Positions 33,896-43,488 of a DNA stretch of 64,000 nucleotides are shown here, piece by piece. The stretch comes from Escherichia coli (lineage in GTDB: Bacteria; Pseudomonadota; Gammaproteobacteria; Enterobacterales; Enterobacteriaceae), in NCBI RefSeq assembly GCF_048403405.1, contig NZ_CP183129.1. One strand, given 5' to 3'. The stretch's first letter is position 1. Every line of letters starts with the position of its first letter. A program made the position numbers and the translations under genes. The notes under the pieces were generated by a model that saw nothing but the letters and a program-made list of their open reading frames with translations, made no database searches and had not been told where the DNA came from.

Positions 33896-34375
33896 CTACG
33901 GCATTGGATGATCTTTCCCTAACCTTATAGTTTCTTTTAGCCTTTCAAGCCTTAGCAATTCAACCTCGGCTTTAATATAGCCATGTGAGGCAGCCATTTT
34001 CAGCCAATTAATTGCATTATCTAAATTATAATATTTTAAATAGGAATCATCCTCCTCTGAGGATAGAATCATAGCATAATTATATTGCGCTATGATATTT
34101 CCTTGAGATGCAGACCTTGCCAGATATTTAATTTGCTTGGGTATATTAAAGCAAACATATGTATAATATTGATGTAATCGATATGACGCATCACCATCCC
34201 CGCCCTCAGATTTAATATCAAGTTCATATCTTTGATTTTCACTTAAATTAAACGATTCAGATGTTGAGCTTATTTCAATGTTATGGAGCTTAATAGGGGG
34301 GGGGATTTCACCTCCATATGAACAACAAGAGAAAAAGAAAACATTTGCAATCAGAATAAATAAAAAGCACTTCAT
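33896..34375 (-). CDS. Sel1-like repeat protein with N-terminal signal sequence; candidate immunity protein for the adjacent orphan Rhs toxin domain
   Basis: 159-aa ORF with hydrophobic N-terminus (MKCFLFILIANVFFFSCCS) and Sel1-like repeats (..AINWLKMAASHGYIKAEVELL..); starts 13 nt after the orphan Rhs C-terminal reading frame ends, with an SD-like aaaggtgg upstream. Confidence 0.55.
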   Translation of the reverse strand: MKCFLFILIANVFFFSCCSYGGEIPPPIKLHNIEISSTSESFNLSENQRYELDIKSEGGDGDASYRLHQYYTYVCFNIPKQIKYLARSASQGNIIAQYNYAMILSSEEDDSYLKYYNLDNAINWLKMAASHGYIKAEVELLRLERLKETIRLGKDHPMP

Positions 34376-34388
34376 GTTGCCACCTTTG

Positions 34389-35385
34389 TTATTTTATATC
34401 ACTTGGTCTCATAACTTTGCCAGGAGTGGAAGAAATGGGTTGACCTGAAGGTCCAAACGTTATCCAGCGGCCCATATTATTACCAGTTATGACATTATTA
34501 CTTGTGTCAATTGCCGAGATATTATCCGTAAGTCCTGTTTGGATCGTATTAAAAAGAGGAGTATTATTATCCCACGCCATCCATACTTGCCATTGTGTAT
34601 CAGCTCCAGTGACATTTGCATGAAGTGCTCTGGCTAACTTGCTGGCAAAAGATTTATCTCCCTCTCTGGCTGTACCACATGAGAATAATCAAACAGACAT
34701 TCCCTTTTTATAGCGTGGATTAGCTCTGATTCTCTTGGCTAATCCCTCAGCAGTTTCATAGTTTCCATTTTCATCTGTAATAAAACCAGGATATCCATGT
34801 CCTCCAATAGTAAAAACGCCAGGAATATTTATTTTATCTGTTGCAGCATGCAGTGATACATTTCTGCGTATCCCCTCATCATAGAAATTCATATCAGCTA
34901 ATCCAAAAGGGTCTATATACTGAACCGGATTCAACGGATACTCATAAAAATTCCATCCCCCCTTCAGCCCAATCGAATCCTGAGTGATATACCTCCCCTG
35001 CAGCGGGTCATAATAGCGGTGGCGGTTGTAATACAGGCCGGACTCCTCATCATACTGCTGACCCGGCAGGCGGATGAGTTGCTGCAGCTGTTGCGGGTTC
35101 TCTTCATTCAGCAGGTTGCCCCATTCATCGTATTCTGCGCACCATTCTGTTGCCCCTTCCGTGCTGATAAGCACCAGCGGCAGGCCGCGATGGTCGCAGT
35201 GGTACAGGTGGATTTTTCGCGCCGGCGTGTACACCGGGTCCATCTGGTTTTGCATCTGCTTCACCGTCAGGCCGCACGATGCCAGCCAGCGGCGGCTTTC
35301 CTCACTCACCCGGTCAGCCAGGATTTCACTTTCCAGCCGGTCGAGCATCTGCACCGTGCCGGCGGGAATCCCCCACTGTGCATAG
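34389..35385 (-). pseudogene. Orphan Rhs module: about 150 codons of Rhs core 3' end, then an alternative C-terminal toxin domain interrupted by one in-frame TGA
   Basis: Track ORFs 34689..35354 (221 aa, GTG start) and 34389..34580 (63 aa) are in the same frame, separated by a single TGA at 34689-34691 (..[19 protein letters not shown]..). N-terminal part is near-identical to the main Rhs core end ([42 protein letters not shown]); sequence after the DPxGL-type motif is unrelated to the main Rhs C-terminus. Confidence 0.7.
34893..35385. repeat. About 0.49-kb direct repeat of the main rhs 3' core region (39747..40240)
   Basis: Near-identical nucleotide stretch (for example ..ccggttcagtatatagacccttttggattagc.. 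against ..ccggttcagtatatagattcaatgggactggc.., then long runs of identity through ..gtcgagcatctgcacc..); the same sequence is read antisense by track ORFs 35019..35528 and 39940..40434. Confidence 0.8.
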
Positions 35386-35395
35386 GCAACTCACG

Positions 35396-36238
35396 CTATG
35401 AACGCTTCAGCTTATCAATAGCGGAAGTTATAATTTCATTGTCATCAAACTTGTACAACATAGTATCTAAAACAGGAAGTAGCGTTTTATCACCTAATTC
35501 ACCCGCAGCTTCAATGATATCATCATAAACAGTATTTTTTTTTAACTCATCGCATAAAACAGATAAAATCCTTTTATCTTTTCTGTAGGAAAGTCCGATT
35601 ATTGCTTCAATACGGACTTCCTCATTTTTATCCTGAAGCATCTCCACAAAACAATCCCTAATATCACTATTATCATATTTATTGATATTTATTGCAAATG
35701 CGGCCCAGTTTCTGACATCTCCATTTGGATCTTTTAACAGATTAATCAATAGTGGAATTGTTGCTTTATCATTGATAACAGAAATAGCAAATGCTGTAGC
35801 ACGTCTGACATTAGTCGATTTATCAAAAGCAGTAATTTGAGATTGTTCTACTATTTTAGGTGAATAAATTGGGTTTTTCTTGCATCGCTGAGCCGTTGAC
35901 TCGATTGCCGTAGCTCGAACGCAAGCGCTCTTATCATTCAATGCCATATTGTTCAAAATATTAAACACATTATCTTTGCATTTTTTGCAAATTTTTATTT
36001 GCCCGAGTATAAATGCTCCGATATCTCTACGGATATAATTTTTATCAGAGCAGAACTCAATTGCCAATCTAACAGCGTCTTGACCACCTCTTAACTGTAA
36101 TACTCTGGCAGATGAAATCCTTTTCAAGGAATTGTGATCATCAAGTAAGCGAAATAATTCATCATCATTTAGTTTCTTACATTGATTATATAAACCATAC
36201 TCTTTACTTGCCTTTCTTTTCTGGTATGTATTTGACAT
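35396..36238 (-). CDS. HEAT-repeat protein (YibA-like, PBS-lyase HEAT-type repeats)
   Basis: Track ORF trimmed to MSNTYQKRKASKEYG.. (280 aa); repeated ..DxxVRxxAxxALG..-like helical repeats (NDKSACVRATAIES, DKSTNVRRATAFAIS, DPNGDVRNWAAFAIN, DKNEEVRIEAIIGLS). Resembles, from memory, the yibA gene that follows rhsA in K-12. Confidence 0.7.
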   Translation of the reverse strand: MSNTYQKRKASKEYGLYNQCKKLNDDELFRLLDDHNSLKRISSARVLQLRGGQDAVRLAIEFCSDKNYIRRDIGAFILGQIKICKKCKDNVFNILNNMALNDKSACVRATAIESTAQRCKKNPIYSPKIVEQSQITAFDKSTNVRRATAFAISVINDKATIPLLINLLKDPNGDVRNWAAFAININKYDNSDIRDCFVEMLQDKNEEVRIEAIIGLSYRKDKRILSVLCDELKKNTVYDDIIEAAGELGDKTLLPVLDTMLYKFDDNEIITSAIDKLKRS

Positions 36239-36342
36239 TGCAGGAACCTCCATAAAGACTATCTTTTTCTATCGTTTGACTGTCTGGAGTCCTCCACCTA
36301 CTCTGCCATCAGCACACACGATGTTTGTTTATCCTTACATAC

Positions 36343-36570
36343 TTATTTTCCGTGGCCAAAATTTAGAATTCTCCCGTCATTTTTGCCTATTTCTATAATA
36401 AAAACCCTACCAGCAATTTGGTCTGATTCAATGGTGCCTTCAACAATCCAACTTGTTGGTAATTCCATGATTTTGTATGGTTTTTCTTCTTCTGCGGCAT
36501 CATGCCCATAACGATTTTTAACATACATCTCAGCTAATTCCAATGCTATAGCTTTATTTTTACCAAATTT
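36343..36570 (-). pseudogene. N-terminally truncated paralog of the 38207..38554 secreted protein (Rhs-associated immunity-like family)
   Basis: Reading frame opens at a stop at about 36571 and uses a TTG start in the track; ..AIALELAEMYVKNRYGHDAAEEEKPYKIMELPTSWIVEG.. aligns with ..EMALELSYVYIKYIYGKEKAEFQKPYSITDDNNCWKIEG.. of the 115-aa protein but lacks its signal peptide and N-terminal region. Confidence 0.5.
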
Positions 36571-36689
36571 CTAACGGTGTATTTCCCCTCACATTCATAC
36601 TTGCGCATTATAATAATATTATTACACTGCGCCCATGTGTTGTATGTAAAAACAAAGATACAATCACATAGGTTCTGAATAATATTTTC

Positions 36690-37067
36690 TTATACGTTGT
36701 AATGTATTTTGCAAACATTAGACAATCCTTTTCCATTTATTATATCTTTCCCATGATTATCTATTGCTTTAAAATTTTCACCTATTGACCTTGAATTACT
36801 ACAATCACTTCCAGTGAAATCTGAGTTATTCAGAATAGCATTCATCAGAGCCGCATTGTGAAAGACAGCATTTCTAGTTGATGTATGTTGAATCATTACA
36901 TTTCTTAAATGAGTTTTTTCAAATTTCGCCCCATCAAGACAATAACCATTGAGGGTGGCACGATGTAGATTCATCCCGCTAAAATCATATCCAGCAAGAG
37001 TGGTACTATCTATCTCAAGAAATTTATTGGTTATTAAAAATGCGATTCTTATCATCTGTTCCTCCAA
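36690..37067 (-). CDS. Pentapeptide-repeat protein (candidate orphan immunity protein)
   Basis: 125-aa ORF with tandem pentapeptide-type repeats (..LAGYDFSGMNLHRATLNGYCLDGAKFEKTHLRNVMIQHTSTRNAVFHNAALMNAILNNSDFTGSDCSN..); AT-rich. Confidence 0.55.
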   Translation of the reverse strand: MEEQMIRIAFLITNKFLEIDSTTLAGYDFSGMNLHRATLNGYCLDGAKFEKTHLRNVMIQHTSTRNAVFHNAALMNAILNNSDFTGSDCSNSRSIGENFKAIDNHGKDIINGKGLSNVCKIHYNV

Positions 37068-37303
37068 TCATCTAACTCCTGAAAAATTTGAAAACCAGAA
37101 CCTCGCTTAGGCCTGTGTCCATACTACGTGGGTAGGATTATTCTGCGTACTACGCTGTTGTCCCTTACGTGCTGATAAGGGCTGGCAGGTTTCCGGCTTG
37201 CTTCGTTGAGTTCACTACGCTAAAGCTCCGTGTCCACATAACCCAGCTCGGAGGCATGACCTTCTCTGGTTCGTTCCATCTAAAATGTCTATAACTGACA
37301 TGG

Positions 37304-37624
37304 TTATTCAATTATTTTTTCTTTGAGTTTATTCTCAATCCAGCGGTCTTTATACCTGATGAGAATTTGACATTCACCAATATTATCAATGTCACCAACA
37401 TTTGTGTTTCGAATTTGACCAACAGCAACTATAGTTGATTCAAAACATTCAACATTGACTTTATCTGTTATTATTGAAACTATATAATCATCTGGAATGG
37501 AGCCATTAGGTATTATATTAAAGAAAGTAACATCGGTAAATACTAAATAACCATTTTCTAAGTCTTCATTATTATAAAAATTCCATTCTGTTGTACCATA
37601 GGCTATCCTTGAGATTAAATTCAC
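37304..37624 (-). CDS. Hypothetical 106-aa protein in Rhs-associated array (possible orphan immunity gene)
   Basis: ORF only; AT-rich; lies just downstream (minus strand) of a degraded Rhs core fragment; no recognisable motif. Confidence 0.35.
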   Translation of the reverse strand: MNLISRIAYGTTEWNFYNNEDLENGYLVFTDVTFFNIIPNGSIPDDYIVSIITDKVNVECFESTIVAVGQIRNTNVGDIDNIGECQILIRYKDRWIENKLKEKIIE

Positions 37625-37744
37625 CTGAATTCTAATTTGTTTGCTCCATAAATCAAATTCAATTTTTTTATTGGTCGATCACCAAGATATATTCTATCAA
37701 ACATATTACCCTCTATTCTAAAAATACTCAGGCATTCCACACAT

Positions 37745-38010
37745 TATATCAGCCTCATCTTGACTGCTTCCCGTTTCCCGATACGGCGGTGCGGGGAGTC
37801 ATAAAGGTAAGAAATTTCCAGCAGTACGGCGTCCTATTGTTCACGGCGGTAATGCACCAGCCAGTATTGGCTATCGTAGTGATAACCGTGTAATCTGCCG
37901 CCGCATCGCGTATCTAATGTTCATTCTTTTCCATAAACCGTCCGTACACATTGTGATAGTAAAAATACAATACATCTTCGCTGATGCGGTTATTCTGCTG
38001 CATGTGGGAA
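37745..38010 (-). pseudogene. Degraded Rhs core fragment (frameshifted, stop-containing vestige)
   Basis: Minus-strand translation across frames gives ..NNRISEDVLYFYYHNVYGRFMEK.. then, after a frameshift, ..YHYDSQYWLVHYRREQ..ISYLYDSPHRRIGKREAVK, paralleling the main Rhs ..[57 protein letters not shown]. Track ORF 37871..38074 is a frame artefact of this vestige. Confidence 0.55.
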
Positions 38011-38206
38011 GCGCCGAATACTGCTCCCGGTATGGCCAGTAATTACTATTTAGTACGACGTTAGGGGGAGTCACTTAATCTCACAGATACTTCAAGTAAC
38101 AGATGAAAATCGCTCCTGAAATGAAAAAGAAATTTTTTTGAATGTGTTCCTGTCAAATCAAGTGGTTTTTTCGTCGATATGTAGAGTCATATTGTACACA
38201 AAATAG

Positions 38207-38554
38207 TTATGAAACACACCTTGGTAAAATATTTGAATCGTCTGAACAGTGGATTATTTTGTGTATTACATCCAACGCTTGCCCATCTTTTTTCGCTATT
38301 AGTATTGTAAAATTTCCTCCTAACGTCTTCGGTTGTTTTCCCTCGATTTTCCAACAATTATTGTCATCTGTAATACTATATGGTTTCTGAAATTCTGCTT
38401 TTTCTTTCCCGTATATATATTTAATATAAACATATGATAATTCCAAAGCCATTTCACGACTATTTACTAAAATTTCCACTGAATTTTCTTTTCCAAATAC
38501 TGAGTGTGATATTGTAAACAATATCATAATAAGTAATATTAGTGAGTTTCTCAT
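38207..38554 (-). CDS. Small secreted protein of an Rhs-associated immunity-like family
   Basis: 115-aa ORF with signal peptide (MRNSLILLIMILFTISHSVFG); paralogous to the truncated ORF at 36343..36570. Confidence 0.5.
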   Translation of the reverse strand: MRNSLILLIMILFTISHSVFGKENSVEILVNSREMALELSYVYIKYIYGKEKAEFQKPYSITDDNNCWKIEGKQPKTLGGNFTILIAKKDGQALDVIHKIIHCSDDSNILPRCVS

Positions 38555-38722: not shown

Positions 38723-39292
38723 TTATTTTTCTTCACTACGAAGCAGTTCATGCTGTACTTTTGTTAAACATTCGTAAGACTCATCTTTGTTCGGGAGATG
38801 TGCTGTCATTCGAGCATAAGTTGGCTTCTCATCTTTAAAATATTTAACCATGATTGAATTATCAAGGACTGCCAACAACTGAGCTGGATCACTGCTCTTT
38901 TTTTGATAGATACCCGCTCTTATATAACTTCTAAACCGATCGCCGAGAAACGCCGTTTTTTCTGCTGTATTTAGCAACTCCTGCAACGTTCCTTTGGTTG
39001 CATGATTTTCATTAAGGCGTAGTGATCCGACGCGAATTAAGAGTCTCGCCCCGCTTGGTGTGAATTTGTTATTTTTACATATACCAAGTTCTGTTTGCCA
39101 ATAATACTCACCTATGTCCTCATTCTGATACCATCTCCACATGGTTTTATTATTTAAGACAGGAAACGCGGAAAAAATAGTACCCTTAGTGAAAATGGTA
39201 AAGCAATCTTGATCTTTAGCTTGTGTTTCGCAATTAGCTATAACACCAAAACTAACGAATATCATCAGCAAAAAGAACAAAGCTCTTTTCAT
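38723..39292 (-). CDS. Candidate cognate immunity protein for the main Rhs C-terminal toxin domain (secreted, signal peptide)
   Basis: 189-aa ORF whose ATG overlaps the rhs TGA (minus-strand ATGA at 39289-39292), typical toxin-immunity translational coupling; N-terminal signal peptide [21 protein letters not shown]-rich. Confidence 0.6.
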
Positions 39293-42200
39293 TTTCTTAT
39301 TCCTCTCGATGTTCTCTGTTTCATTTTAGCTAAAATTTCACCCAAATCATCTATCCCTGCTGTTGCTGGCCCATCGGGTTTATTAATGTCTGGGAATAAA
39401 TAGGGTTCTGCACAAGTATATCCTGGTGGTAATTGAGTTGTTGGCCAAGTTGTCTGTGGCAGGTAATCACTTGCTGTCTTTGTCTCCATCCCTGGATACT
39501 GGGGATCATCCTGCGGCGTACAAGTCAGATTGGGTTTTACCCACTTCCTGCAATACAGTGTGTAATCGTAAGGACTTAATGCTCTGAAGAATGTTTTGAA
39601 AACATTAGGCGCACTACTGGCCTGGTCAATAGGATATGGCAGTCTTAATTGTTTCGCTATGTCTGGCAACTTACTTGGATCGGGCGTAGGCGGTTTGTTG
39701 GGTCTCGCTCCATATCCGCCATTATTTAAGTGTCCATATTTAGATGCCAGTCCCATTGAATCTATATACTGAACCGGATTTAACGGATACTGATAAAAAT
39801 TCCATCCCCCCTTCAGTCCAATCGGATCCTGAGTGATATACCGCCCCTGCAGCGGGTCATAATAGCGGTGGCGGTTGTAATACAGGCCTGACTCCTCATC
39901 ATACTGCTGACCCGGCAGGCGGATGAGCTGCTGCAGCTGGTGCGGGTTATCCTCACTCAGCTGGTTACCCCATTCATCGTATTCTGCGTACCATTCTGTT
40001 GCCCCTTCCGTGCTGACAAGCGCCAGCGGCAGGCCGCGATGGTCGCAGTGGTACAGGTGGATTTTTCGCGCCGGCGTGTACACCGGGTCCATCTGGTTTT
40101 GCATCTGCTCCACCGTCAGGCCGCACGATGCCAGCCAGCGGCGGCTTTCCTCACTCACCCGGTCAGCCAGGATTTCACTTTCCAGCCGGTCGAGCATCTG
40201 CACCAGCACCGGCGGGAACACCACACTGCCACCGTCTTCGCCGCCGGACTGCTGAAGCGCATCCGCCAGGCTGCGGCGCTGCGTTTTCGCCAGCTCACCG
40301 GTGGCGGTTTCGACCCTGATGAGTGGCGTGAAGCTCCCCGGCTGATAAACCGTCTGGATGCGGGTTCTGTCGTTCTGTATCGTGGTCAGCCGGTCGCCGT
40401 CCCAGCCGTACCAGGTCACTTCCGGTTTCCGTGACAGCGACATCCAGCCCGTCAGGTCCCGTTCACGCCGCCACACCCGTTTTGCCACCCTGCGGCCCAG
40501 CGGGTCGTAAAGATAGCGACTTTCGACCAGCGGCTCTGCATATTGTGTCCGCGTGTAGTGCACCAGCCGGTGCTGACTGTCGTAATGGTACCGGTGAGTC
40601 CGCTCATCATCCGTGCGGATAACCCCTTCCGGGATGAGGTCGGTTTTCTCCGTCAGCCTGCCGTGACGGTCATACCGGTAAAGATAGTGCGCGTCACGGG
40701 CGATACGGTTATCCGGCCACATGCTGAGGGTGCTGTCCGGGTGCAGCTCCGGGTCGGGCAGGCGGTTACCTGCCGGGTCTGTGGCATACGGGATGCGGAT
40801 ATCCAGATTCGCTGCCGTGGTGTGGACGCCGGTCAGCCTGCCGGAGTCGCTGTAGCTGTAACTCCGGGTCTGTCGCGGGCTGCTGATGCGGATGAGTTCG
40901 CCGTTGTCGTTCCAGGTGTAATCGCGGTCATACTGCAGGCTGTTCAGGTGCTGGCTCTGTAACTGCCCGGCAGAGGTGTAAGCGGTGGTGAGTTCATAAC
41001 GGCCGAAGCTGCGCAGCGTTTCCCGGTGCAGGCGGTCGCGGGTGAAATCCACCAGCGGTGTGTCGCCGAGTTTCATGCCTGACAGCCAGCCGCTGCCGTA
41101 GGTCAGCCATTCCACGGCGGGCAGGCTGTCCGGTATACAGCGGTTCGCCAGTCCCTGCGCGTTGTACGCATGTCTGGTTTCATGCTGCCAGAGCAGTGCT
41201 TCCGTCTGCGGGTGATGCACCGTCTGGCGCTCACCGGTCAGGCGGCCTTTCTCATCATACCCGTAATGCACCGTCACCCGGTGGCCTTCGCTGAGATGGC
41301 TGATGCCTGTCAGCCAGCCGCGTTCGTCGTACCGCCACTGTTCTGCGGTTTCACCATTCACCGTTCGCTGTGTGATGCGGTCTGCTTCGTCATAGTGCCA
41401 GTGGGTGACCAGCCCCTCATCCTCGCTGCGGATAAGTTTGCCGGTCAGGTCGTGGTGATAACGCTGTGTGCGGCCGTCAAAGCCGGTTTCCTGTATCAGC
41501 CGGTCAAGTACATCGTAACGGAAGGTGGTGTGGCTGCCGTTTTCACTGGTCAGGCGGATGACCCGCCCGGCAGCATCGTATTCCATACTGCGCGTCAGAC
41601 CGCCCTGCGTGGTACGGATGGCCTTTCCCCACGCATCGTACTGTGTCCCGTTTCTGCTGTCGTCCGGGGCAATGACGGCGGTCAGGTCACCGGCGGCGTT
41701 GTATTCATACCGCGTTTCATGGCCCTGCATGTCTTTCACCGCAATTAACTGTCCACGGCTGTCGTATGCGCGGTACTGGCTCAGGCCTTCCTCGCGGTGC
41801 ACCGTCGTCACCTGACCAAAACGGTCATGGTCATAGCGGGTTACATAACCGGAACAGTCGGTAAAGCTCAGCAACTGACCGTAACGGCTCCACGTCATGG
41901 TTTTCCGGCTGCCGGTGGCATCTTCCGTTGCGCAGGGGAAGTCACTGTGTGGATTATCATAACGGTAGCGGGTGATATCGCCGTCAGGGGCGGTTTCCTG
42001 AATCAGACGGCCGGATTCATCATATTTGCGGCGCAACTCCAGCCCGTCAGTCCCGGTGGCTGACGTTAACTGGTTGTGGTGGTTATAGTAAAATGCCGAT
42101 GCCCTGCCATCCGGTGTGGTGATGCGCGTGATGAGTCCCGTCACCACATCCGGGCTGTACTCAGTCGTCCGGCCTGCGGCATCCGTCTGTGCCTTAAGCC

Positions 42201-43488
42201 TGCCCACCGCATCAAACTGACTCTGCGCGACGCTGCCGTCCGCGTGTTCCTTTTTCACCACCCGCTTCAGCCCGCCTTCGCCCTGCGTGTGCAGCACTTC
42301 ACGGCGGTCCAGACTGTCGGTGATGGTGATGCGGTCTTTCTCATACTGATACGTGTAGCTTAAGCCTGCCGGGTTTAGCTGCTCTGTCACCCGCCCGTCG
42401 CTGTCGTAACGGTAACGGATTTCCGGCCGGCCCGCGCGGCGGTGCGCCACCATCCGGCCCCGGTATTTATCATCGTAAGTAAAGCTGCGCACCTGTTTGC
42501 CACTGCGGTCATACACCGCCGCCAGTTCGCCGCGCGGCGTCCAGCCATAGCGTACCAGCGGCGCGGCTGGCAGGTTGTCCGGATATTCCGGGTCGTGCGT
42601 CAGCCACACGGCAGACAGACGGATGCCGTTGTCCCGGCCATATTCGGTGTAACCCGGCAGGGTATCAGGAAAAGCGGACGGTTCCGTCCCGCCGGAAATG
42701 GCCTGCTGCCGGGCCTCTTCTGCCCGCAGCGCCTGCGTGGTCAGTACCAGCCGGAAGTGACGCCCGGCACCATCCGTCACGCCGGTGATTTCGCCGCTGA
42801 ATTCGCCGCCAGCCTCACGGTGGAACGTCTGTGTGCGCCCGAAGCGGTCCACCAGCCCGGTCAGTACCCGGTACGGCGGCAGCGGCGCAGGCAGCACCTC
42901 ATCCGCCTCCGGCACCCGCTCACACCAGCCGAGTACCCACCACGGCCCCTGCGGACTGTTCGTCGCCAGATAACGATGCGGACTTAAGCGGAGTTCTTCC
43001 GGCAGCGCCTGCCAGAGTGCGGCCAGCCGGTGACCTTCATCCAGTTTCAGGACACCGCCACGCACCAGCCAGAGTGATTCGCTGCGGCTGTAACCGTCCT
43101 CACCGGGAAACAGGCGCTCAAAATACAGGCTTCTGCCGCCGTTATCACTGAGTATCAGTGTGTTATCGCGCAGCTGTAAGCGGATATCCGCAGGCATTTT
43201 CCAGCCGGGGCCGAGGCTCCCCACCGGCGCGGGCGTTTTTGTCCGGTAACTGCTGTAGGTGCGGGAGAGGATGAACGGCAGCGGGCCGGGCAGTGCAAGG
43301 TCGGTTTCGCCGGGAAGGACCTTCGCACCGAGCAGCGGATTGACCGGATGGCCGGACGTCACCCCGCCGGGGCACACCGAACAGGCCACACCGGTGGGGG
43401 CACCGATGCGCACCCCGGCTGAACCCTGGACAATGCTACCGCCATACTGCGTCATGTCGCCCTGACGCGCCGCCGGTTTTCCGCTCAT
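39289..43488 (-). CDS. rhsB: Rhs-family polymorphic toxin (PAAR-Rhs core with YD repeats and variable C-terminal toxin domain)
   Basis: 1399-aa ORF; N-terminus [29 protein letters not shown] contains a PAAR motif; GC-rich core with many YD-type repeats; core ends ..[13 protein letters not shown], followed by an about 152-aa AT-rich C-terminal domain ([32 protein letters not shown]). Symbol assigned by position downstream of nikR. Confidence 0.85.

Follow-up and report, generated by a model that had tools for sequence, protein, structure and literature searches.

The window analysed here is a 64,000-nucleotide (nt) segment of an Escherichia coli chromosome, and all positions refer to this whole stretch. 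It carries an intact rhs gene and, directly behind it on the same strand, a gene for a 189-residue protein. The rhs gene occupies the classical rhsB position, with nikR on one side and yhhJ on the other, and the nikABCDE-nikR genes are also on the minus strand. An earlier note on this stretch had proposed that the two genes encode a toxin with an unassigned C-terminal domain and a secreted, translationally coupled immunity candidate, and the coordinates it gave for both agree with the listing of open reading frames (ORFs; Table 1). In the RefSeq annotation of E. coli strain 7/2 the equivalent genes appear as 'RHS element core protein' followed by 'hypothetical protein WP_000816740.1'. The second gene is an allele of ybfC of E. 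coli K-12 and we use that name here, while the C-terminal domain of the Rhs protein is called the tip.

Table 1. Features of the rhs-ybfC locus and of the genes downstream of it
Feature	Position	Strand	Basis
rhs gene, intact, 1399 aa, 4200-nt ORF	39289..43488	minus	ORF listing; RHS_core match
N-terminal 45 residues of Rhs, one PAAR-like repeat, prePAAR-like AARxxDxxxY, ending CSVCPGG	43354..43488	minus	Pfam, hydropathy
DUF6531 domain, Rhs residues 46-123	43120..43353	minus	Pfam PF20148, E=3.1e-18
Rhs-associated core domain, Rhs residues 1170-1247	39748..39981	minus	TIGR03696, E=1.6e-22
PxxxxDxxGL boundary motif, Rhs residues 1238-1247, closing the core domain	39748-39777	minus	Motif scan
Proline-rich variable linker, tip residues 1-36	39640..39747	minus	Poor conservation (alignment A1), missing in distant homologues, pLDDT <50
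Conserved 116-aa putative toxin domain, tip residues 37-152	39292..39639	minus	Alignment A3, homologues 25-74% identical
Shine-Dalgarno AGAGGA of ybfC, within the toxin Arg-Gly codons, 8 nt before ATG	39301..39306	minus	Sequence
ybfC allele, candidate immunity protein, 189 aa, 570-nt ORF	38723..39292	minus	93% identical to K-12 YbfC
Predicted YbfC signal peptide, residues 1-19	39236-39292	minus	Rule-based scan
NTF2-fold protein gene	38207-38554	minus	Downstream array
DUF6258 gene	37304-37624	minus	Downstream array
Pentapeptide-repeat pseudogene, split	36690-37067	minus	Downstream array
NTF2-fold gene, frameshifted	36343-36543	minus	Downstream array
yibA, HEAT repeats	35396-36253	minus	Downstream array
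Orphan Rhs core fragment, 221 aa, with a different short tip after ...YIDPFGL	34689-35354	minus	RHS_core positions 1111-1261

Residues 1-1247 of the Rhs protein match positions 1-1261 of the NCBIfam RHS_core model (NF041261) with 2616 bits, the cutoff being 2000, and YD repeats are detected as well (TIGR01643, E=3.8e-37). The boundary motif at the end of the core has Ser in place of the usual Pro of the PxxxxDPxGL type. By inference from other Rhs proteins, it would be the site at which the toxin is released by self-cleavage. Exactly 152 residues lie beyond it (1248-1399), and these form the tip. The GC content is 0.619 in the core (0.726 at third codon positions, GC3), 0.436 in the tip (GC3 0.342) and 0.375 in the immunity gene, and the switch falls at position 39748. 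The contrast between a GC-rich YD-repeat core and an AT-rich tip of 152 residues, which the earlier note had pointed out, is therefore real.

The same note had described an N-terminal PAAR motif, and this description holds for the tetrapeptide but not for the domain. The tetrapeptide occurs once in the whole Rhs, at residues 5-8. When the protein is compared with the Pfam model of the complete PAAR domain (PF05488), in which three repeats form a cone, only residues 2-20 align, with model positions 51-69 of 70 and E=0.18. The N-terminus amounts to about one third of a PAAR domain and the label 'PAAR-Rhs' overstates what is there. At residues 6-15 (43444-43473) we find AARxxDxxxY, with Tyr where the prePAAR motif AARxxDxxxH has His. 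The prePAAR effectors described by Ahmad et al. 2020 (PMC7773334) combine that motif with one or more N-terminal transmembrane domains, a PAAR domain and an Eag chaperone. In the window Rhs, Tyr replaces His, the PAAR domain is missing and no transmembrane segment is found anywhere in the protein (best 19-residue hydropathy 0.98), and the annotation of strain 7/2 shows no eag gene in the region that matches. The short N-terminus (MSGKPAAR...) is nevertheless near-identical in the Rhs proteins of Phytobacter (L011, 4194-4493) and of the betaproteobacterium Acidovorax (L012, 3363-3962). Phytobacter ursingii has an Rhs that shares this N-terminus and the tip and is accompanied by YbfC, and the gene immediately upstream of that Rhs is a vgrG (TIGR03361, E=5.7e-181); one metagenomic relative adjoins VgrG, DUF2169 and PAAR-like genes. 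The conservation of this N-terminus in Acidovorax and in the vgrG-linked Phytobacter protein suggests a working module rather than a degraded PAAR domain. We think it fairly likely that a type VI secretion system (T6SS) delivers the window Rhs.

The coupling of the two genes, which had been claimed from an ATGA overlap, can be read directly in the sequence aaaATGAaaaga, where the rhs stop and the ybfC start share these four nucleotides (39289-39292), and it recurs in distant relatives as described below. The predicted signal peptide of YbfC, also part of the original proposal, begins with MKR, continues with a 15-residue hydrophobic stretch (best 10-residue hydropathy 3.22) and ends with V-I-A at -3/-1. 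It is conserved in distant relatives too, since the rule-based scan finds the same architecture in 27 of 27 YbfC-family members: the n-region is positively charged, the hydrophobic core reaches a best 10-residue hydropathy of 2.35-3.68, and the residues at -3/-1, close to residue 19, are small. The mature protein would have about 170 residues with cysteines at positions 21, 30, 72 and 175, and no hydrophobic segment is found in it. Every family member has C30 and C175. C21 and C72 occur as a pair, in the enterobacterial members and one metagenomic relative, and the other members lack both. Two disulfides in an exported protein would be expected to produce such a pattern. The signal peptide in all members and the conserved cysteine pairs together support an exported immunity protein, and we consider export of YbfC highly likely. 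The best reading, by prediction, is a soluble or lipid-anchored periplasmic protein.

For the window allele the cleavage region V-I-A/N-C fits signal peptidase I and not a lipobox, and a lipoprotein assignment was dropped because IANC has Asn at -1. In the E. coli alleles this position is Asn or Asp. About one third of the enterobacterial homologues have a lipobox-compatible [ILM][AGS][AS]C at Cys21 (P0047, P0048, P0052, P0053, P0055-P0057 and P0060 in alignment A2). Within the family, soluble periplasmic proteins may alternate with lipid-anchored ones. A scan for promoters and terminators gave counts that were the same as the shuffled expectation.

The tip and its partner are not new to E. 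coli genomics. The earlier note had not recognised that the module already has names, ybfO/ybfC in K-12 and RhsC/RhsCI in enterohaemorrhagic E. coli (EHEC). The tip is identical to the C-terminus of K-12 ybfO (b0703) at 149 of 152 positions, and the 189-residue protein is 93% identical to K-12 YbfC (b0704, annotated as 'uncharacterized protein YbfC') over its full length (100% coverage). The ATGA overlap and the Shine-Dalgarno sequence are shared as well. In K-12 the tip sits on a 477-residue orphan Rhs fragment downstream of rhsC-ybfB (ybfO, annotated as a pseudogene), whereas in the window it sits on a complete Rhs at nik/rhsB. In EHEC O157:H7, where the pair is RhsC (z0847) and RhsCI (z0853), the tip sits on a full-length 1399-residue Rhs. 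Next come ybfC, an NTF2-fold immunity gene and a DUF6258 gene, ordered as they are here, but that module is found at the rhsC locus, on the kdp-ybfA side. An in-silico study of EHEC EDL933 (PMC7216683) named this pair and found no significant similarity for either protein, only weak I-TASSER and tetratricopeptide repeat (TPR) likenesses; it reports neither a function nor a signal peptide for them. The rhsC-specific primer of that study matches the window exactly at 39687-39706, within the tip. We found no functional study of ybfC, ybfO, WP_000816740 or RhsC in the literature.

The presence of the same tip and immunity gene on the K-12 rhsC orphan, on the full-length Rhs at rhsC in O157:H7 and at nik/rhsB here supports the idea that the cassette has moved between rhs loci, in keeping with the C-terminal domain exchange that had been suggested from the GC switch. 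The module is very common. DNA covering the tip and ybfC is found in 3613 of 5426 complete E. coli genomes (about two thirds) and nearly always as a single copy, with the window allele (at least 99% identical) in 284 genomes and a K-12-type allele (95-99%) in 3323. Compared with the K-12 copy, both parts show signs of purifying selection, with ratios of nonsynonymous to synonymous changes (pN/pS) of 0.11 for the tip and 0.27 for ybfC, both from small counts.

How far the module extends beyond E. coli depends on the search. A word-indexed search returned tip homologues in Enterobacteriaceae only, with at least 66% identity over the aligned part. An exhaustive profile search of 1.84 billion representatives gave 28 proteins with a tip match. 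We inspected 12 of the more distant of these hits, and in 11 the match was either a short tip fragment or the C-terminus of an Rhs behind a boundary of the DPxGL type; the only non-Rhs hit, a 2084-residue repeat protein (P0098, E=4e-4), was set aside as a likely chance match. Further tip relatives, with 39-42% identity, came from a genome scan and belong to Acidovorax, Paracidovorax and Ralstonia. For YbfC the profile search gained a few unannotated metagenomic proteins and nothing more. Two short contigs labelled as metagenome-assembled genomes (MAGs), L009 (QFQM01000662.1, 'Flavobacterium psychrophilum') and L010 (JARKOR010000224.1, 'Candidatus Nanosynbacter'), carry a tip 96-97% identical to that of E. 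coli, and we regard both contigs as almost certain E. coli contaminants of these unrelated bins.

The linkage between the two genes is strict. We compared seven loci from outside E. coli, namely three metagenomic ones (two with the same gene content), one from an NCBI genome assembly and those of Phytobacter, Acidovorax and Ralstonia (L003, L006, L008, L011, L012 and L013, with L004 and L005 repeating L003). In all seven the gene after the tip encodes a protein of 188-201 residues whose start overlaps the toxin gene. The overlap is ATGA in five of the distinct loci and 14 nt in one, and a GGAG-like motif stands 8-10 nt upstream of the immunity start in each distinct locus, as it also does in K-12 and O157. 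Five of the partner proteins could be aligned or compared with YbfC, the metagenomic and NCBI-assembly ones being 21-32% identical, and the Acidovorax partner was assigned to the family by its size, position and signal peptide rather than by alignment. At one relative locus two tandem YbfC paralogues follow an orphan tip. A conserved R-G-x-R-K at the toxin end coincides with the GGAG-like Shine-Dalgarno motif and the overlapping start of the immunity gene (window 39289-39306; also L002, L003, L006, L008, L011, L012 and L013), and part of the protein conservation there may reflect a constraint on the nucleotides for translational coupling. As judged from these comparisons, two small unnamed families, one of tips and one of YbfC proteins, extend to Betaproteobacteria and are strictly linked to each other. 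This is a new observation, and so is the uniformly exported immunity family, a predicted property that distinguishes the module from typical Rhs toxins. The locus itself is not new, as the annotation of its genes goes back decades and its EHEC copy is on record as a putative effector-immunity pair. Taken together, the sequences make it very likely that the tip and YbfC are a true toxin-immunity pair.

The activity of the tip is harder to approach. In an alignment of 12 tip sequences with identities down to 25% (alignment A3), S58, P59, C66, W69, C76, P107, C112, A130 and D134 are invariant and D61, Y62, D94 and G109 nearly so, with conserved acidic positions at D61, D94, D/E120 and D134. The same alignment has no invariant His, Lys, Arg or Glu. 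The tip is basic, with an isoelectric point (pI) of 9.1, and contains no hydrophobic segment (best 19-residue hydropathy 0.14). Neither the tip nor YbfC gave a match in Pfam, NCBIfam, PHROGs, PADLOC or the PDB sequences, by single sequence or by profile; for both proteins, every alignment member was also compared with Pfam, and the PDB sequences were searched with phmmer and with profiles. The only sub-threshold Pfam matches, Defensin_RK-1 (E=0.04) and Phytase (E=0.1), were taken as chance, as were the best PDB sequence matches (E 0.34-1.4). There was also no sequence-motif match between the tip and nine validated polymorphic toxins as given in one supplement of the Nachmias preprint (bioRxiv 10.1101/2021.10.19.465003). 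Judged by these searches, the tip belongs to no described family. The earlier note had seen no known toxin fold in it, and in that respect its view stands. The note had also suggested remote-homology searching and structure prediction for both proteins as a check. An AlphaFold2 model of the tip built with 10 homologues has a mean predicted local distance difference test score (pLDDT) of 52.7. Residues 61-120 alone reach about 70-78 and form a three-stranded sheet, and there is a low-confidence C-terminal helix. YbfC is modelled better, as a beta-sandwich with pLDDT 76 and a predicted template modelling score (pTM) of 0.73.

It is useful to compare the module with the toxin systems it resembles. 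With the PAAR-Rhs effectors of T6SSs (Salmonella TreTu, Photorhabdus Tre23, Pseudomonas protegens RhsA and Dickeya RhsA/B) it shares the YD-repeat cage, the Rhs-associated core with its PxxxxDxxGL boundary, the polymorphic tip, the downstream immunity gene and the existence of orphan modules. In those effectors the PAAR domain is complete and often comes with prePAAR, transmembrane segments and an Eag chaperone, whereas the window Rhs has a PAAR fragment (AARxxDxxxY) and no transmembrane segment. They deploy nuclease or ADP-ribosyltransferase tips and are paired with immunity proteins that have no signal peptide, whereas here the tip has no assigned family and the immunity protein is predicted to be exported. 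In the latter respect the module follows the logic of the periplasm-acting T6SS pairs (the Tae/Tai amidases, Tge/Tgi, the Tle/Tli lipases and Tlde1/Tldi1), in which a Sec-exported immunity protein guards the periplasm against an envelope-directed toxin. However, the Tae, Tge, Tle and Tlde1 effectors are not encapsulated by Rhs, while the window tip is Rhs-borne. Effectors of these types carry recognisable catalytic signatures (Cys-His, GxSxG, HxxxxxSHGC), and in alignment A3 we find none of these conserved; hydrophobic helices and matches to a family model, which would mark other known periplasmic classes, were not found in the tip either. The missing Cys-His pair, GxSxG and hydrophobic helices argue against the common amidase, lipase and pore-former classes. 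A Cys-His amidase, a pore-former and a colicin M-like motif had been considered as activities for the tip and were dropped, there being no conserved motif in their support.

Our favoured explanation, which we hold with moderate confidence, is that the module encodes an Rhs-borne toxin which acts on the envelope from the periplasm of the target cell and is blocked by exported YbfC. The Rhs cage would enclose the tip and release it by self-cleavage at the boundary, as other Rhs proteins do. The protein would be delivered into neighbouring bacteria, most likely on the VgrG spike of a T6SS encoded elsewhere in the genome. Having neither a transmembrane segment nor a translocation domain, the tip would remain in the periplasm of the target cell; its three invariant cysteines (C66, C76 and C112) could be oxidised there, and it would damage a component of the envelope. 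In kin cells mature YbfC, a predicted disulfide-bonded beta-sandwich, would bind the incoming toxin in the periplasm and block it. The site of action is inferred from the lack of a hydrophobic segment in the tip, the lack of a translocation domain in the Rhs and the exported immunity protein, and on that basis we regard it as probably periplasmic. Envelope attack, the probable mode of action of this very common toxin, is unusual among Rhs toxins.

Several observations weigh against this explanation. According to the predictions of one survey (bioRxiv 10.1101/2024.02.26.582050), the targets of Rhs and PAAR-Rhs effectors lie almost without exception in the cytoplasm, so that a periplasmic Rhs tip runs contrary to the base rate. 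A survey of Salmonella pathogenicity island 6 (SPI-6) likewise found signal peptides on none of the Rhs-linked immunity proteins, and the tip is basic, as many nucleic-acid-directed toxins are. The target could then be cytoplasmic or in the inner membrane, with YbfC intercepting the toxin during its passage through the periplasm or not being the sole immunity factor. We think this unlikely, since an exported immunity protein cannot guard the cytoplasm and the signal peptide, present in every family member including relatives at about 20-30% identity, would be left unexplained. The Rhs also has no transmembrane or translocation segment, and neither a nuclease, ADP-ribosyltransferase or deaminase motif nor a match to such a family in Pfam or NCBIfam is seen in the tip. 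As to the structure predictions, the immunoglobulin-like (Ig-like) sandwich of YbfC is generic and uninformative on the target, and no structural match was obtained for the tip from its unreliable model. The Ig-like sandwich is also common in binding and adhesion proteins and YbfC matches no known immunity family, so one might see it as a secreted accessory factor (an adaptor, a co-effector or an unrelated periplasmic protein) that travels with the tip. We give this very little credence, because the gene sits right behind the toxin with an overlapping start, strictly co-occurs with it across distant taxa and is duplicated in tandem behind an orphan tip, which are the usual hallmarks of immunity genes of polymorphic toxins.

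Further points against an active envelope toxin concern delivery and upkeep. The test for a complete PAAR domain failed. In the region of strain 7/2 that corresponds to the window there is no vgrG, eag or other T6SS gene. To our knowledge E. coli K-12, which keeps the orphan module, has no T6SS at all, and its tip survives on a fragment annotated as a pseudogene. In O157:H7 FRIK2069 (L015, 9456-10026) ybfC is frameshifted by a poly-T expansion in the signal-peptide codons (GTTTTGTTTTTTTTTGCTG) and the tip-bearing Rhs is intact. Several O157:H7 assemblies have a matching span that is 1 nt longer; FRIK2069 is the one inspected, and its frameshifted ybfC beside an intact Rhs implies that immunity is dispensable in that strain. 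Dispensable immunity fits either a silent locus or a toxin unable to reach the producer's own periplasm. The array downstream of ybfC is also rich in pseudogenes and insertion sequence (IS) elements. All this could mean that the Rhs is a silent relic, no longer delivered, whose tip and ybfC persist by hitch-hiking or in another role such as immunity-only protection. But the 4.2-kb ORF is intact with a full RHS_core score, comparison with even the orphan copy of K-12 points to purifying selection on the tip, subject to the small counts, and the short N-terminus is conserved in Acidovorax and in the vgrG-linked Phytobacter Rhs. We consider a silent relic distinctly improbable, and an envelope-directed toxin with exported immunity remains the explanation we prefer.

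As to the frameshift itself, it could be a lineage mutation, slippage-prone switching or an assembly error. The poly-T tract is interrupted by a C in the window allele of ybfC. H22 and H23 are further assemblies with the 1-nt longer span, and H22 is not labelled as O157:H7.

ybfC is followed by an array of orphan genes of the immunity type (35396-38554, minus strand). The longer ORF of its first NTF2-fold gene (38207-38554) opens with a signal-peptide-like sequence, MRNSLILLIMILFTISHSVFG, which RefSeq omits. For this reason the gene is a candidate for export, and other immunity genes of E. coli Rhs loci may be exported as well. In K-12 yibA follows rhsA, so the window locus is pieced together from cassettes of several rhs loci. 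The orphan Rhs fragment beyond the array is a pseudogene in RefSeq and is followed by two small ORFs (region 33896-35354), with IS1 and ISAs1 beyond them in the matching genome. The small ORF at 33896-34375 has an N-terminal hydrophobic leader containing Cys and only a weak MerG-like match.

Rhs toxins are a main currency of bacterial competition, and most characterised tips are cytoplasmic nucleases or ADP-ribosyltransferases. Unassigned Rhs tips are common, which makes the present finding useful rather than startling. Solving the activity of this tip would give a function to two long-standing 'y-genes' of K-12 and could expose a new target in the envelope. It would also show whether Rhs cages are able to set their cargo free in the periplasm. 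A bolder version of our explanation, which we put forward tentatively and would not bet on, is that the ybfO-type tip is a new toxin fold in an Rhs cage that hits an envelope component new as a toxin target and is blocked by a new Ig-like class of periplasmic immunity proteins. If this were true, the module, carried by about two thirds of the complete genomes, would be a major overlooked determinant of kin discrimination in E. coli, K-12 included, and cage-type Rhs effectors would not be confined to cytoplasmic targets.

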